Of a stretch of 64,000 nt of DNA, positions 1,726 through 50,109 are shown one piece after another. Every line of letters starts with the position of its first letter. The stretch's first letter is position 1. A program made the position numbers and the translations under genes. This stretch comes from a virus (Duplodnaviria; Heunggongvirae; Uroviricota; Caudoviricetes), in the IMG/VR virus record IMGVR_UViG_2622736468_000003; one strand, 5' to 3'. Under the pieces are notes generated by a model that searched no databases, was not told the DNA's origin, and was given only the letters and a program-made list of their open reading frames with translations.

Positions 1726-2406
1726 CTATCGCCATTGCTCCCCAAATACAAAACCAATTTCAGCCAGTGCCTCGTCCATTTTTTCGATGAACTCTGGCAC
1801 CATTTCGTCAAAACCAGCCATGTATTTTTCATCCCGTTCGACCACGACATAATGCAGTCCTTCACGCTTCATACGCGAGTCATAGTTGGCAAAGTACCAG
1901 GCATCTTTTCGTGTCACCCACATGCTGTACTGCACCTGGGCCATGTAAGCCGATTTTATGGCCTCGAAACCACCGAGCCGGAACCTCATGAAATCCCGGG
2001 AGGTAAACGGGCATTTCAGTTCAAGGCCGTTGCCGTCACTGCATAAACCATCGGGAGAGCAGGCGGTGCGCATACTTTCGTCGCGATAGATGATCGGGGA
2101 TTCAGTAACATTCACGCCGGAAGTGAACTCAAAGAGGGCTCTGGCGTCGTTCTCGTACTGTTTTCCCCAGGCCAGCGCTTTAGCGTTAACTTCCGGAGCC
2201 ACACCGGTGCAAACCTCAGCCAGCAGGGTGTGGAAGTAGGACATTTTCATGTCAGGCCATTTCTTTCCTGAGCGGGGTTTTGCTATCACGTTGTGAACTT
2301 CTGAAGCGGTGATGACGCCGAGCCGTAATTTGTGCCACGCATCATCCCCCTGTTCGACAGCTCTCACGTCGATCCCTGTACGTTGCAGGATAATGTCCGG
2401 TGTCAT
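1726..2406 (-). CDS. exo: Lambda Red exonuclease (Exo)
   Basis: 226-aa protein near-identical over its length to recalled lambda Exo ([40 protein letters not shown]...). Confidence 0.93.
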
Positions 2407-3188
2407 GCTGCTACCTTCTGCTCTGTGACTTTCTGTTTCAGGAATCCAAGAACCTTCACAGCTTCAGCCTGTGTTAGTTCTGAAGATGTGTAAATGTTGC
2501 GGCGAAAAATCTGGGAACAGAGCGGCAACAGGTCGTCATCCCACGTTTTTTCCATGGAAGTAAGAAGGGCGTTAATTTCCGACATGGTTTCTTCGTTAAC
2601 CGGGGTGATGTCGCGTTCCGGCTGACGTTCTGTAGTATATGCAGTATTTTCGACAATACGCTCGGCTTCATCCTTGTCATAGATGCCAGCAAATCCGAAG
2701 GCCAGGCGAGCACACTGAATCATGGCTTTGTGCCGTAACATCCGTTTGGGATGCGACTGCCACGGTCCGGTGATTTCTCTGCCTTCGCGGGTTTTGAATG
2801 GTGCGCGGCGACATTCATCCATCCACTCGGTAACGCAGATCGGGTGATTGCGATCTTTGCGGTAAATCCGGCATGTACAGGACTCATTGTCCTGCTCAAA
2901 GTCCATGCCATCAAACTGCTGGTTTTCATTGATAATGCGGGACCAGCCATCAACGCCAACCACCGGAACGATGCCGTTCTGCTTGTCAGGGAAGGCGTAA
3001 ATTTCTTTCGTCCAGGGATTAAGGCCGTACTGGTTGGCGACGATCAACAATGCGATAAATTGCGCATCGCTGGCATCACCTTTAAATGCCGTCTGGCGAA
3101 GAGTGGTGATTAGTTCCTGTGGGTCGACAGAATCCATGCCGACACGTTCAGCCAGCTTCCCTGCCAGCGTTGCGAGTGCTGTACTCAT
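2403..3188 (-). CDS. bet: Lambda Red beta single-strand annealing protein (Bet)
   Basis: 261-aa protein matching recalled lambda Bet ([37 protein letters not shown]...); start overlaps exo stop. Confidence 0.93.
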
Positions 3189-3193
3189 CCGTT

Positions 3194-3490
3194 TTATACC
3201 TCTGAATCAATATTAATTTGGTGACGGGCGATGGTTTCAGCCATGTAGCGGATGTGTTCTGCCATGCGTTCCTGAAAATCGACATCGTCATCAAATGCTC
3301 GGGTAATGGCCTGTTTGCTGGCACCACAGCGTTGTAGGCTATCTATGCAGAGCGATTCAAACAGGCGCTGGGGCAGTCCTTTTTCCAGGTCGTCCGCCAA
3401 CTCTGCTTCAGTTTCTTCACGGGCAATTTTCCGGTAGTGTCGTGCCCATGACAGCTCTTCAATGCGATCGGGGATAAGCCAGGCATTCAT
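3194..3490 (-). CDS. gam: Gam, RecBCD inhibitor
   Basis: 98-aa protein matching recalled short-form lambda Gam ([39 protein letters not shown]). Confidence 0.85.
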
Positions 3491-5558
3491 GATTTATCAC
3501 CTCCGAAATGTTCAAGCCTGTTGGCAATCATGATGGCGATATCAGGGATTGCTGGCGCTGTGGCTATACATGCAGGGTTTGCGCACAAACCATAGACGGC
3601 CGCAAGCACGAGCTGCCTTTTCCAGTCGAAATCTGCTTGCTCTGAATCATCATTATTGTCAGAAGCATCACTATGTGGAGCTATGTGGACAACCGAATCG
3701 TGTTCCTGAGTTGTATCAACAGCATTTTCCTGAATGTATTCATTCTTCATTTGTGCTTGTCCATCTCCATCAGCGGCGTCATTTTCTCCAAAAGTTTCTG
3801 TGTAAGTGCTATCGCCCATTACTGGACCACAGTCAGGGCAATGCCCGCCAGCGCTCTGACTGCATGCGGTGCAAACCTTTTCCACTTCCTGTTGCATTAC
3901 TGGCCCTGGCTGTTGCTCTTCCGGTCCGTTTTGTTGCGTATCCGGGCTGTTTTGTTCCGCTTCTGGCTCAATTTGTTCCACTTTGGACTGATTCAGGTCC
4001 TCAGTGTCGCGAGTCTGGATCCCCTTCACCCACTTCGGATCAGCAGGGTTACTGATGCCTTCAACGAATTCTCCACGCGAGGCAGCCAGTAATTTGTCGG
4101 CATCGACTGGATTTTTTGGGGGGATGTTTTCCCTGGCTTTATTGAGTTCCTCCCTCAGTTCCTGGTATTTCGTTTCTACAGATGAGACATTTTCCAGTGA
4201 TTGCGTGTCCTCATTATGTTTAACTGGAATTTCTTCCACTGATTCAGGCGCTGCCTGTTCATTAGCCATTGTGTCCGATGCTTGTTGCTTTTCTTCATCG
4301 CCATGTTTCCCTTCTGCTGTTCCGCGCTGCGGCATCGGGGCTGATGAGCGACCGCAGGCAATTTCCACGATTTCCGGATCCGGGTTAGCGTGATCGGTTT
4401 CGGTCAACACTTTGTTGAGATATTCAGTCACGCGTGCCGGGATGGCCTCAATGCCGATTGGTGCTTCTTTCACGGAAGCCACCACAATGGCGCGGGAATA
4501 ATCCAGCCCACCGGGCATGGCGATAAATTTGTCGCGAAAAACAGAAAAGGGCGGCTTATTCTCTGACACGATTTCTTCAACGCGTTTTGCGTGTGCTGGG
4601 TGCAGGTTATAAATATCCACATCCATTGAACGGGCCAGAACGCCGGTGGCTACATCTCGTGCGAGTGATGTCTTATCATGTTTGAATCCTTCACCACGAT
4701 CGGTAAGATTTCCGCCGCCAGCGTTAGCACCGGAAGGCGTACGGGTAATGCCTGAAACATAATTTCCGTTCTGCCATTCTTTTGTCAGCAGGCCCTGATC
4801 AAGGTAGTCAGTTTTCATCCAGGTGGAAATGAACTTGTCGAATTCAGCCGGGCTGATGCGATGATTTGCAGAGTGGGGGAATGCTTTCCCTACAGATTCA
4901 GCCAGGCGACTAAGGTGATAGTTCGTCAGTTTATCCAGTTCATGATGTGCGGCGCGCACAGCAGTAAGCAGGCTCTGAAGGTAACTGTCCTCTGTGTCCA
5001 TCTCCATACGGATCACGTTATTGCGTTGTTCTGGTGTGGCGTGATGCCGGTATTTTCCATCTTCATCCTTGCTGAAGAAGAAGAGGTGAAGGAAGCGATG
5101 AGTAAGGCTCAGAGTGGCGACGGGAATTTCACACTCAGAACAGTCATCGTCGCTGTCCGGGGATTCGCTTTTCTCCACATCATCCGGAATAGTTCCGTCC
5201 AGGTTATCGTTGTCATCGCCAGCAGTTGTGGCATCTTCACCGTTGATGTTGTCATCGAAGGGATAGCCATCATGGTGATGCCATCGTTACCGCCTTTTTC
5301 ATAGCGGTTGCAGAATTCAGTATCAAACACGCCTTCCGGTGGAAGGTCATTCACGACGGGGAAATTTACGCGAACGGGTTTTTTGAAATCATCCTCGTCG
5401 TAGCCTGCATCGTCCATGGCTGCAATGCAGCGGGAAACTGCGACAGAAAGTTTTCTGGCCTCGGTCCAGAAAAAACCGCCTTTGATGCCAAGGCGTTTTC
5501 TGACTTTATCGTTTTTTGCTTCGCAGTGCAGTGCAAAAGTCTGTTTATCAGCGCTCAT
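3487..5558 (-). pseudogene. Large acidic early-operon protein, apparently frameshifted (about 690 codons if repaired)
   Basis: The 149-aa ORF 5109..5558 and the 563-aa ORF 3487..5178 (GTG start) overlap by 70 bp; the downstream frame stays open upstream to a TAA near 5281 and encodes a continuous acidic linker, implying a 1-nt frameshift near 5265-5285; Cys clusters CSEC and CTAC..HCPDC; function unknown. Confidence 0.5.
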
Positions 5559-5665
5559 TGTATTTAAACCTCTGGCTGGATTAGAATTAGCGGCCCTTTG
5601 TCTGATTTCTCCGAATACGGTGACGCAGGGAGAAATCCGGTAGCCTGCGCTGCCGGATTTTTATT

Positions 5666-5845
5666 TCAGTGGAAGGTTGCCTGGTTTGCTGTTTTGTGAG
5701 TTGTTTTTCCCTTTTCGTGCTGGCATTCAGGGCAGTCGCACTCAGAATTTTCTCTTGCAAACTCAAGATCCTGCGCCAGTGTATGGATTTGTTGTACTCC
5801 AATGTTGCTTCTGACAACTTCACGTGCAGCATGAATATATGGGCT
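5666..5845 (-). pseudogene. 3' fragment of a 127-codon early gene split by IS629
   Basis: Removing IS629 and one copy of the CTT duplication joins this frame exactly to ORF 7157..7365, giving ...SCGLNGKTPSPYIHAAREVV... with no stop until 5666. Confidence 0.6.
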
Positions 5846-5900
5846 TTGAACCGCCCCGGGAATCCTGGAGACTAAACTTCCTGAGAAAGAGGTAAACAGG

Positions 5901-6227
5901 ATGACTAAAAATACTCGTTTTTCCCCCGAAGTCCGTCAACGGGCAGTCCGTATGGTTCTGGAAAGTCAGAGCGAATATGACTCACAATGGGCGACAATTT
6001 GTTCCATTGCTCCAAAGATTGGCTGTACGCCGGAGACTCTGCGTGTCTGGGTTCGCCAGCATGAGCGGGATACCGGGGGCGGTGATGGAGGGCTCACCAC
6101 CGCTGAACGTCAGCGTCTGAAAGAGCTGGAGCGTGAAAATCGTGAACTGCGCCGCAGTAACGATATCCTTCGCCAGGCTTCCGCTTATTTTGCGAAGGCG
6201 GAGTTCGACCGCCTCTGGAAAAAATGA
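5901..6227 (+). CDS. IS629 transposase OrfA
   Basis: 108 aa [19 protein letters not shown]..., HTH and leucine-zipper region typical of IS3-family OrfA. Confidence 0.9.
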
Positions 6228-7114
6228 TGCCACTGCTGGATAAGCTGCGTGAGCAGTACGGGGTCGGACCGCTATGCAGCGAACTGCATATTGCCCCGTC
6301 AACGTATTACCACTGTCAGCAACAGCGACATCATCCGGATAAACGCAGTGCCCGTGCGCAGCGCGATGACTGGCTGAAGAAAGAGATACAGCGCGTATAC
6401 GATGAAAATCACAAGGTATACGGTGTGCGTAAAGTCTGGCGTCAGTTGTTACGGGAAGGTATCAGAGTGGCCAGATGCACTGTGGCACGTCTCATGGCGG
6501 TTATGGGACTTGCCGGTGTTCTCCGGGGTAAAAAGGTCCGTACGACCATCAGCCGGAAAGCCGTTGCCGCAGGCGACCGCGTAAACCGTCAGTTCGTGGC
6601 AGAACGACCTGACCAGCTGTGGGTGGCTGATTTTACTTACGTCAGCACATGGCAGGGCTTCGTCTATGTGGCGTTCATCATTGATGTGTTTGCCGGATAC
6701 ATCGTGGGGTGGCGGGTCTCATCGTCCATGGAAACGACATTCGTGCTGGATGCACTGGAGCAGGCGTTATGGGCCCGTCGACCGTCCGGCACGGTCCATC
6801 ACAGTGATAAAGGTTCTCAGTATGTATCGCTGGCCTACACACAGCGGCTTAAGGAAGCCGGATTACTGGCATCAACAGGAAGTACAGGCGACTCGTATGA
6901 CAACGCGATGGCGGAGAGCATCAATGGTCTTTACAAAGCGGAGGTAATACACCGTAAGAGCTGGAAAAACCGGACAGAAGTGGAGCTGGCCACACTCACG
7001 TGGGTGGACTGGTATAACAATCGACGATTGCTGGAAAGGCTGGGCCATACTCCTCCGGCAGAAGCAGAAAAAGCTTATTATGCTTCCATCGGAAACGATG
7101 ATCTGGCAGCCTGA
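6224..7114 (+). CDS. IS629 transposase OrfB (integrase catalytic domain)
   Basis: 296 aa; overlaps orfA as in IS3-family frameshift fusion. Confidence 0.9.
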
Positions 7115-7156
7115 GTTCACAGATAAAACACTCTCCAGGAAACCCGGGGCGGTTCA

Positions 7157-7365
7157 CTTGGTGTTTTGCCATTTAACCCACATGAAACAAAACGACTGTC
7201 CTTATATTCGTTATTTCCAACTTCTGTAAGCACTGAAAAAGAAAATACAAAGTCGATTTTGTATTCTTTGCATATTTTACTGATGCGTTCTGCAATTTCT
7301 TTGAGTTCATTTATTGCATCAGGACTGGTTTCGGAAAATATTTCATTTTGCGCAAGTTCTTTCAT
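7157..7365 (-). pseudogene. 5' fragment of the 127-codon early gene split by IS629
   Basis: ORF 7117..7365 ends in IS-derived codons; native part is 69 codons up to the IS boundary. Confidence 0.6.
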
Positions 7366-43970: not shown

Positions 43971-44517
43971 TTTTTTACCGTATGTTCGTCGCCATATCAG
44001 TGGTCCGCTGAACATTATGATGACGGATGCGTTATCCATGTCGGCAGTGGCATTCTGCCGTCAGTCCCTGTTGTGCCGCCGTGAAGTCACGCTGTCACCG
44101 TCAGCCGGAGAGGACTGTGTGTTGCCATATGACGCGGAGAATGAAGAGTGCGTACATATTATTCGTATCCTCGCTGACGGGCGTGAGCTTTTTGCCGGTC
44201 ATGATGTAGAAATCCGCCCGGGGCGGGTAATGCATTTTGCCTGTTCGCCCGGAGAGGTGAGTGTGCTTTATGCCGTTGCTCCGAAAGCAGGGAGCCGTCA
44301 GGTGCAGGATGAACTGCGGGCATGGTCTGAAGAAGTGGCAGCAGGGGCGCTTGAACGGTTGTTCATGCAGACCGGGGTTTCATGGTCAGACCCGTCGCGC
44401 GCACAGTATTTCTCTGTGCTGTTTTCTGAGGGTATCCGTCGGGCATATCGCGACACACTGGCGACAAGTCCGTACTCCTCATACCGCAATCCTGTCCGCA
44501 GACAAAGGTTTTACTGA
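43954..44517 (+). CDS. Hypothetical structural protein
   Basis: 187 aa from ATG 43954, overlapping the upstream stop. Confidence 0.4.
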   Translation: MAELTDFLPYVRRHISGPLNIMMTDALSMSAVAFCRQSLLCRREVTLSPSAGEDCVLPYDAENEECVHIIRILADGRELFAGHDVEIRPGRVMHFACSPGEVSVLYAVAPKAGSRQVQDELRAWSEEVAAGALERLFMQTGVSWSDPSRAQYFSVLFSEGIRRAYRDTLATSPYSSYRNPVRRQRFY

Positions 44518-45166
44518 TGACGACGATTACAGAAATCATCGGACGTGTGAATACACAACTGGTTGACCCGATGATGGTTCGCTGGCCCCTGCAGGAATTG
44601 TGCGATTATTACAATGATGCTGTGAGGGCAGTGATTCTGGCGAGACCGGATGCTGGCGCAAGCCTGGAAACAATCAGTTGTGTTCCGGGCGCCCGTCAGG
44701 TTTTGCCCGATGGTGTAATACAACTTCTTGACGTGATATGCCTCAGTGACGGTAGTGCAGTCAGACCATTATCCCGGGAGGTGCTGGATGCGCAGTATCC
44801 TGAGTGGCTCACAATGAAGGGCATTCCTGAATGTTTTATCAGCAACGACCTGTCCCGCGCGTATTCTGGCTGTTTCCTGCTCCTGACAAAGAGATAAGTA
44901 TTGATGCAGTGGTAAGCCGGATACCGGAGGCAGTGTATGTTCTGACGCAGGACGATGATACGCCAGTTCCACTGGAAGATGCTTATGTTAACCCACTGGT
45001 GGACTGGATGTTGTTTCGCGCTTTCAGTAAGGATGCTGCCGGTGGCGCAGAATCGGGGCTGGCTGCGCAGCATTATCAGAGTTTTGTTGAGCAACTTGGG
45101 ATCAAACAGGGGGCAGACAGTGCATTGTCTGCCCGTAAAAAAGTGTTTAACGGAGGTGGAGTGTGA
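44517..45166 (+). pseudogene. Hypothetical structural protein, apparent frameshift
   Basis: ORFs 44517..44897 and 44831..45166 overlap in different frames with continuous coding character; shift near 44840-44890. Confidence 0.45.
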
Positions 45167-48484: not shown

Positions 48485-50109
48485 ATGCCTTATATCGATA
48501 TAACCACTATGCGCGGGATGATGCCAGGCGTTATTGCATCTATGCTTCCTGATAATGCTGCTGTACTGGCAGAAAACTGTCATTTTCGCTATGGCGTGAT
48601 CACGCCTGAACACGAGATGTCAGAGGTTGAGAAAACATTCACAATTAAGCCAAAAACAATTTTTCATTACCGTGACGATTTTTGGTTTGCATGGCCGGAT
48701 GTGGTGGATGTGATCCGCAGTCCGATCGCTCAGGACCCCCACGGGCGTATTTACTACACTGACGGGCGTTTTCCTAAAGTGACGGATGCGACCATTGCCA
48801 CAAAAGGGGACGGGAATCACCCGACATCATCGTATCGTCTTGGGATCCCCGCGCCGACGACAGCTCCTGTCTGTACTGTTCAGCAGGGCGGTGATGTTTC
48901 TGACGATAACCCGAATGATGATGAAACCCGGTTTTATACGGAAACCTTTGTCTCAGATTATGGTGAAGAAGGTCCGCCAGGTCCGGCGTCTCTGGAGGTA
49001 ACACTCCGTACTCCGGGAACTGCGGTACAACTGACGCTGGCTCCGGTGCCATTGCAGAATGCCAGTATTAAACGTCGCCGGATTTATCGCTCTGCATCAG
49101 GTGGAGGGGAGGCGGATTTTTTACTTGTGGCTGAACTGGATGCATCCGTGCTCAGTTACACGGACAAAATACCGGCGAAAAACCTTGGGCCTTCCCTGGC
49201 GACATGGGATTACCTGCCGCCGCCAGAGAATATGACAGGCCTTTGCCTGATGGCTAACGGTATTGCCGCCGGGTTTGCCGGTAATGAAGTGATGTTTTCG
49301 GAAGCGTATCTGCCGTATGCATGGCCGGAAGTGAATCGTCACACGACGGCAGAAGATATTGTAGCTATCTGTCCGCTGGGAACGTCACTGGTGGTGGCGA
49401 CAAAGGGGAGCCTTATTTGTTCAGTGGGGTATCACCGTCCACAATTTCTGGTTCCAAAATCCCTTCCATGCAGGCATGCCTGAGCCGAAGAAGTATGGTG
49501 GCGATGGAGGGATTCGTGCTGTATGCAGGAACAAATGGCCTGGTATCGGTTGATGCAGGCGGCAGTACAGCCGTGGTAACGGAAAAAATCATTTCACCAG
49601 AACAGTGGCAGAGTCAGTTTAATCCGTCGTCCATTGTGGCTTACTCATGGCGTGGTGAGTACATTGCCTGTTACACGAAACCTGATGGTAAGCAGGATGT
49701 GTTTGTCTTCAACCCGGTGAACATGGATATCCGCTATCTCAGTACACCGTTTGACTGCGCATGGGTTGATCTCGCAAAAGATATGATGCGCGTGGTGACA
49801 GGAGACAAAATGTCAGTGCTTGCCGGGGGCTCTCTGCCGTCCACGATAAGGTGGCATTCAAAAATTTTTTCATTGCCTGAAAGAACCTCTTTTTCCTGTA
49901 TCAGGGTGAAATCTCCAGCACCTGAGCGGGTGGGGATCACCGTTATGGCTGATGATGTTCCTGTTATTCATTTTGCGCCGGGTACGTTTAAGGGAAGTGT
50001 GGTGAGACTTCCGGCAGCAACCGGGCAAAACTGGCAGGTGATGGTATCCGGATTTGGGCAGGTGGAACGAATAACCCTGAGTACATCGATGTCGGAGTTA
50101 CCGATATGA
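48485..50109 (+). pseudogene. Tail or virion protein, apparent frameshift
   Basis: ORFs 48485..49483 and 49321..50109 overlap by about 160 bp; coding character switches frame near 49400-49420 within ACAAAGGGGAGCC. Confidence 0.5.

Follow-up and report, generated by a model that had tools for sequence, protein, structure and literature searches.

The 64,000-nucleotide stretch of DNA analysed here (the window; IMG/VR virus record IMGVR_UViG_2622736468_000003, Caudoviricetes) carries a large gene beside gam which very probably is a frameshift-broken, nuclease-less member of the RecE family in the pL operon of a lambdoid, Shiga toxin (Stx)-phage-like prophage; an accessory role is proposed only tentatively. 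The identity of the product as a nuclease-less RecE-family protein is contradicted by none of the data. A first-pass annotation of the sequence had described a gene of about 690 codons adjoining gam, in the slot between gam and N of lambdoid phages, which it could assign to no family. Size and position are confirmed, as intact homologues encode 690 amino acids (aa) and the gene has gam downstream and kil and N upstream. The family is now clear, since the protein falls among RecE relatives by PF06630, by NF007259, by PHROG 607 and by a BLASTP comparison with Rac RecE.

The gene is split into two open reading frames (ORFs). In a four-sequence alignment the sole gap in the window gene is one missing C in a CCCC run (gene nucleotides (nt) 296-299). 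Restoring this base gives a 690-aa protein that is 100% identical to WP_001271584.1 (EHV74745.1, from E. coli DEC6E), annotated "RecE family exodeoxyribonuclease". The break that the first-pass annotation had placed at 5265-5285 is therefore real, but its actual site (5260-5262) lies a few bases to the left, still within 5250-5300. The choice offered there between a pseudogene and a sequencing error also stands, the lesion being a single-base deletion whose repaired product is an intact database protein. Uninterrupted copies with 96% identity are found by megablast in E. coli O104:H4 and other genomes, and phages PhiR5_2, phiSTEC1589-Stx1c, Shigella 75/02 Stx and POCJ13 carry related ones. The homologues in the O104:H4 prophage (L001:4093-6165) and PhiR5_2 are intact at 2073 nt and 690 aa, and the Shigella phage 75/02 Stx version is intact at 2049 nt and 682 aa. 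Database homologues with E = 0 number in the thousands, well beyond chance.

The two ORFs overlap by 70 nt, an arrangement that need not be a lesion if there were two genuine overlapping genes here or if ribosomes were programmed to shift frame. However, every close homologue examined is a single uninterrupted ORF of 681-700 codons, and 34 of 36 full-length copies in IMG/VR are intact, so that the two separate, conserved overlapping genes which the first-pass annotation had considered are not seen in relatives. As judged from the sequence, the site (C CCT TCG) is not a slippery heptamer of the form X XXY YYZ. Neither split product (149 aa, 563 aa) is recorded in databases, unlike the repaired product. 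Alignment, site and intact relatives together effectively refute this alternative, to which we attach next to no credence.

The matches that place the protein in the RecE family also show where the likeness ends. By BLASTP, residues 51-592 correspond to residues 43-546 of Rac RecE (K-12) with 54% identity, rising to ~88% from residue 245 onward, and the alignment ends there. The NCBIfam model NF007259 is matched with 735.9 bits, below its cutoff of 1269, and only over profile positions 1-594 of 877. Pfam reports PF06630 (the N-terminal Exonuc_VIII region) alone, matched by residues 55-197 with a score of 47.8 bits (cutoff 25). The match to PHROG 607 ("exonuclease VII") takes in positions 1-617 of its 883-position profile, and residues 181-425 of the window protein match PHROG 26058. 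The nuclease domain of RecE begins at residue 564-606 and extends to 866 (PMC11611040). Since homology to RecE stops at residue 546, the 690-aa protein has no nuclease domain. In a Pfam scan neither PF12684 (PDDEXK) nor PF16473 (DEDD) was matched. The position of the nuclease domain is occupied instead by an acidic linker of ~50 aa and a tail of 45 aa; proteins with this ending are called tail-type here. A phmmer search with RecE residues 600-866 recovered nuclease-bearing relatives and zero tail-type proteins. In two close relatives, P0121 and P0127, the likeness to RecE extends as far as "ETGE(V/A)A" (about RecE residue 590), where the tail begins at once, so that the swap falls cleanly on the domain boundary.

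Database names would make the protein a true exodeoxyribonuclease VIII: the RefSeq name for the intact homologues is "RecE family exodeoxyribonuclease", GenBank phage records use "exodeoxyribonuclease VIII", and the PHROG annotation is of the same kind. Against these names stand the end of RecE homology before the nuclease domain, the partial and sub-cutoff NF007259 match, the missing PF12684 and PF16473 matches, a structural model lacking any beta-containing C-terminal domain and the presence of a separate lambda-type exo gene downstream. As the nuclease domain is missing, the protein cannot be exonuclease VIII whatever its database name, and the partial homology effectively refutes a reading that had negligible probability. 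On the sequence comparison and the model, the exonuclease label would be an over-annotation, misleading for a nuclease-less protein, and the absent domain predicts a lack of 5'-3' double-stranded DNA exonuclease activity. The first-pass annotation had also allowed for a clear match to a known structural or replication protein. A known recombination protein is indeed matched, but only in its N-terminal part, which reviews describe as "of unknown function", and not in its nuclease.

The layout described from the translation alone is real: a start rich in lysine and arginine, an acidic linker, a central domain and the cysteine clusters CSEC (residues 140-143) and CTAC...CPDC (residues 563-577). 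For the intact homologue P0001, AlphaFold2 modelling on an alignment of 70 sequences gives a confident alpha/beta N-terminal domain (residues 1-100) and a confident all-alpha core (residues 140-410, predicted local distance difference test (pLDDT) score 80-93), in which the Gly-rich loop (279-284) is flexible. Residues 456-477 form a further helix; elsewhere the chain is disordered, and the tail is helical with low confidence. Only helices are predicted after residue 456, which argues against a nuclease fold. In structure searches the predicted folds had no match among known structures, and no sequence-related solved structure was found for the RecE-like protein. The putative zinc ribbon (C563, C566, C574, C577) is conserved in RecE (CNAC...CPDC) and in P0121; the four cysteines are absent from distant tail-type proteins. 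The whole protein is very acidic (net charge -58, isoelectric point (pI) 4.6), with long disordered linkers rich in aspartate and glutamate. Pairwise ratios of nonsynonymous to synonymous substitution (dN/dS), calculated by region among IMG/VR copies, are 0.4-1.5 for the four linkers and 0.15-0.27 for the folded parts. Together with the 34 intact copies (the two broken ones are interrupted at positions other than that of the window), these values indicate that the protein is kept by selection, the window copy being the exception.

When 1.84 billion cluster representatives were searched exhaustively, only 166 clusters of the family came up, assigned to Enterobacterales wherever they are named. 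Core-containing representatives of 50%-identity clusters, classed by local phmmer and Pfam, end in a PDDEXK nuclease (21), a DEDD nuclease (15), the tail (23) or something else (21), and none carries two of the first three. The other endings include a recurrent coiled-coil-like terminus and a RecT fusion. P0123 and P0291 are apparent direct fusions of the RecE N-terminal region to RecT-like sequence (PF06630 with PF03837), the nuclease domain seemingly deleted in frame. Further profile searches added little variety: a core profile drew mostly partial proteins and a full-length profile the same E. coli set. PHROG 26058 is matched over its whole length by distant tail-type proteins. For a few Citrobacter-type relatives (P0293, P0346, P0352, P0364, P0366) precomputed annotation lists PF27432.1.

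In 21 tail-type proteins with overall identities of only 21-31%, no segment is better conserved than the tail. Its motif, [YWF]xQQLxxAAxxG[LM]CANP...[DE][IL]PxxA, lies at the extreme C-terminus and is present in the window protein; seven positions are invariant in the 21 sequences (L650, A653, A654, G657, C659, N661, P662). When the last 80 aa were searched against phage genomes by tblastn, the tail was found only inside these proteins, and an origin from a stand-alone small gene was accordingly dropped. A membrane anchor is unlikely, as distant tails contain several charged residues.

Comparison with Rac RecE (exonuclease VIII, b1350, 866 aa) shows what has been retained and what has been exchanged. 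Common to both proteins are the Gly-rich loop, the RGEFV..DPKW motif and the CxxC-x7-CxxC zinc ribbon, and both genes lie in the early-left operon downstream of kil. The window protein, in contrast, has the 45-aa tail where RecE has its PDDEXK domain, and it departs from RecE in the first ~50 residues and in the acidic linker. Whereas recE is partnered by recT, the window gene is followed by gam, bet and exo, and no RecT-type annealase gene adjoins it. The DEDD fusions (PF16473, Rv2179c-like; for example "exodeoxyribonuclease VIII" of phage vB_EcoS-689R5) share the N-terminal (N1) domain, the core and an operon position just before xis/int, but end in a 3'-5' exonuclease instead of the tail. 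The functional label of PHROG 607 comes from nuclease-bearing members, and PHROG 26058 carries no assigned function. Lambda kil, cIII, ral and gam occupy the same genomic slot without relation in sequence or fold; the RecE-like gene is 5-10 times the size of these early-left accessory genes and encodes a multi-domain protein. Nuclease-less "RecE-2" proteins of lambdoid phages were noted in 2025 in Genome Research, with "roles not known" (PMC12315714). As far as the relevant passages of that paper go, RecE-2 is RecE-related, encoded in the early-left operon and devoid of a nuclease fold, all of which holds for the window protein. Those passages call RecE-2 distantly related to RecE without analysis, and they make no mention of the C-terminal tail or its alternation with two nuclease types.

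We tentatively propose, as one possibility, that the 690-aa protein serves phage DNA-end metabolism without catalysis, as an accessory or scaffold factor. The protein alone would supply what the N-terminal region gives full-length RecE; this region would be a platform that delivers or organises DNA-end activity, and the tail, in lieu of the nuclease domains, would be a module for protein docking or oligomerisation. The proposal agrees with published accounts in which the RecE N-terminus is not needed for nuclease function but enhances linear-linear recombination (PMC11611040 among the sources). In relatives the same platform bears exonucleases of one polarity or the other. The mechanism is weakly supported. 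A RecE N-terminal fragment reportedly did not work in trans, a point that carries no weight in the argument here.

Gene neighbourhoods bear on the proposal in both directions. Among 80 tail-type loci surveyed in IMG/VR, gam is directly downstream of the tail-type gene in 50; bet comes next in 41 of these, as does exo unless the contig ends first, and the other nine are mostly remnants riddled with insertion sequences (IS). Weighing against an accessory role are the 30 loci in which xis/int comes next and tblastn detects neither exo nor bet, gam or recT, eight loci from Buttiauxella, Citrobacter, Lelliottia and Cedecea of which the same is true by the same search, and the DEDD-type relative of phage vB_EcoS-689R5, near which no annealase gene is annotated. 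Tail-type loci devoid of recombination genes indicate that the protein needs no phage recombination module alongside. For the same reason docking of the tail on neighbouring lambda Exo, Bet or Gam was rejected as a general rule; in the E. coli clade such docking is possible.

A doubtful but substantial alternative, already suggested in the first-pass annotation, is that of an early protein directed against the host or its defences, whose N-terminal module and acidic segments would bind, or mimic the substrate of, a host nuclease or immune system (such as RecBCD or another DNA-end sensor), independently of recombination. It would account for the early-left accessory location, directly upstream of gam in 50 loci, and for the situation in other genera, where the gene is the only large one before xis/int with no recombination genes. 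The strongly acidic composition noted above and folds that match nothing known point the same way. However, the acidic linkers evolve in a near-neutral manner, which argues against a precise DNA-mimic surface, and close relatives have the same module fused to exonucleases, including RecE, a bona fide recombination enzyme. Membership of a defence system was discarded, since P0001 and four relatives matched zero families in PADLOC-DB, which collects known anti-phage defence proteins.

Beyond the accessory factor proposed above, a bolder and rather unlikely extension can be formulated. The RecE N-terminal region would be an autonomous, often shuffled platform of enterobacterial lambdoid phages, and the GLCANP tail an undescribed interaction domain that recruits a DNA-end-processing or defence factor, of host or phage origin, in trans. 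If this were true, recruitment by the tail would correspond in function to the 5'-3' or 3'-5' exonucleases that relatives carry covalently attached. The 690-aa protein would then reveal the task of the enigmatic two-thirds of RecE, be it to enhance recombination by tethering ends or to counter nucleases or defences.

For the window copy, recent inactivation and mis-sequencing are the two possibilities. That the frameshift is an assembly or sequencing error, the gene being intact in the strain, has close to an even chance, if slightly under it; this possibility competes only with the pseudogene part of our reading. In its favour, the lesion is a one-base homopolymer contraction in an allele whose product otherwise matches an intact database entry exactly, and two more lone 1-nt deletions split conserved genes in the window, a pattern expected of indel-prone sequencing. 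Both were revealed by comparison with PhiR5_2, which is too divergent from the window for a global indel count. One, at ~44855 (ORF 44517-44897, continuing to ~45157), splits the homologue of a 216-aa PhiR5_2 tail-region protein, with the tblastn frame changing from 3 to 2 at 44855. The other, at ~49405 (ORFs 48485-49483 and 49321-50109), splits the homologue of a 541-aa PhiR5_2 protein, with a frame change from 2 to 1 at 49402-49408. Counting the RecE-like gene, the prophage thus has three lone 1-nt deletions.

Several observations argue instead for a real pseudogene. A run of four bases is short for a homopolymer error, and two of the 36 IMG/VR contigs also have broken copies. Further, an IS629-like element is inserted 290 bp upstream in the same operon, which shows that this prophage is damaged; relaxed selection on the RecE-like gene would follow from such degradation. 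The element interrupts a 128-aa gene between kil and the RecE-like gene, remnants of which persist as minus-strand ORFs at 5587-5832 and 7117-7365, and the insertion is probably polar on the downstream recombination genes.

The coordinates of the gene, its parts and its neighbours are collected below. In relatives the order is N, two hypothetical genes, kil, the 128-aa gene, the RecE-like gene, gam, bet and exo, then int. This is the early-left operon of a lambdoid phage, and early expression of the RecE-like gene from pL is expected. In distant prophages a small Cys-rich ORF (~65-90 aa, CxxC...CxxC) lies directly upstream of the tail-type gene (L005 6762-6959, L006 6082-6282, L009 6061-6261, L086 5027-5302, and similarly elsewhere). 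By position it resembles ydaE, annotated as zinc-binding, which is two genes upstream of recE in Rac (ydaE-racC-recE), and it may form a conserved gene pair with the tail-type gene. Several prophages without recombination genes have an ORF of ~115 aa directly after the tail-type gene and before xis/int (L005 8449-8814, L012 7139-7483, L058 8134-8478), the product of which, by eye, looks like an Rrf2-type helix-turn-helix protein (MxISSxHDxA...). A tail-type lineage of ~70% identity (L048-L054, L059) is found in decayed, heavily IS-ridden prophages in which a gam remnant and then several IS elements follow; judged by eye, these loci resemble Shigella.

Table 1. Features of the RecE-like locus, in window coordinates; residue numbers are those of the intact 690-aa protein.
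Feature	Coordinates	Strand	Remarks
Nuclease-less RecE-family gene, whole	3487..5558	-	2072 nt, 1 base under the intact 2073-nt gene
ORF 1, 149 aa	5109..5558	-	Residues 1-100 authentic, the remaining 49 up to the stop out of frame; PF06630 match
ORF 2, 563 aa, GTG start	3487..5178	-	Residues 128-690 of the intact protein
Frameshift site	5260..5262	-	Coding-strand CCC (+ strand GGG), CCCC in intact homologues; codons Ile99-Pro100
N1 alpha/beta domain, residues 1-101	5257..5558	-	pLDDT ~84; dN/dS 0.22; PF06630
Acidic disordered linker, residues 102-139	5143..5256	-	Net charge -15; dN/dS ~1.5
All-alpha core with Gly-rich loop, residues 140-410	4330..5142	-	dN/dS 0.15; ~88% identity to Rac RecE in its C-terminal two-thirds
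Conserved helix and linear motif, residues 456-515	4015..4194	-	dN/dS 0.16
Four-Cys zinc-ribbon-like motif CTAC-x7-CPDC, residues 561-590	3790..3879	-	Common to RecE residues 517-531; dN/dS 0.27
C-terminal tail, residues 643-690	3490..3633	-	In place of the RecE nuclease; dN/dS 0.21
gam	3194..3490	-	Start overlaps the stop of the RecE-like gene by 4 nt (ATGA)
bet	2403-3188	-	After gam
Lambda-type exo	1726-2406	-	After bet
IS629-like element, IS3 family	5847..7156	+	1310 bp, 3-bp target duplication; orfA 5901-6227, orfB 6224-7114

As an object the gene is already known, and as sequence it is ordinary. The protein is in RefSeq, its family is in Pfam, NCBIfam and PHROGs, "RecE-2" is in print (in the passages of PMC12315714 cited above), and the family is common in E. 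coli prophages. What these proteins offer is natural stand-alone versions of the RecE N-terminal region under purifying selection, and hence a clean handle on the role of its ~590 residues and on the preference of full-length RecE for linear-linear recombination in direct-cloning recombineering. That PDDEXK, DEDD and short tail alternate on a shared platform is the most useful lead, and gives a modest new handle on the N-terminal module.

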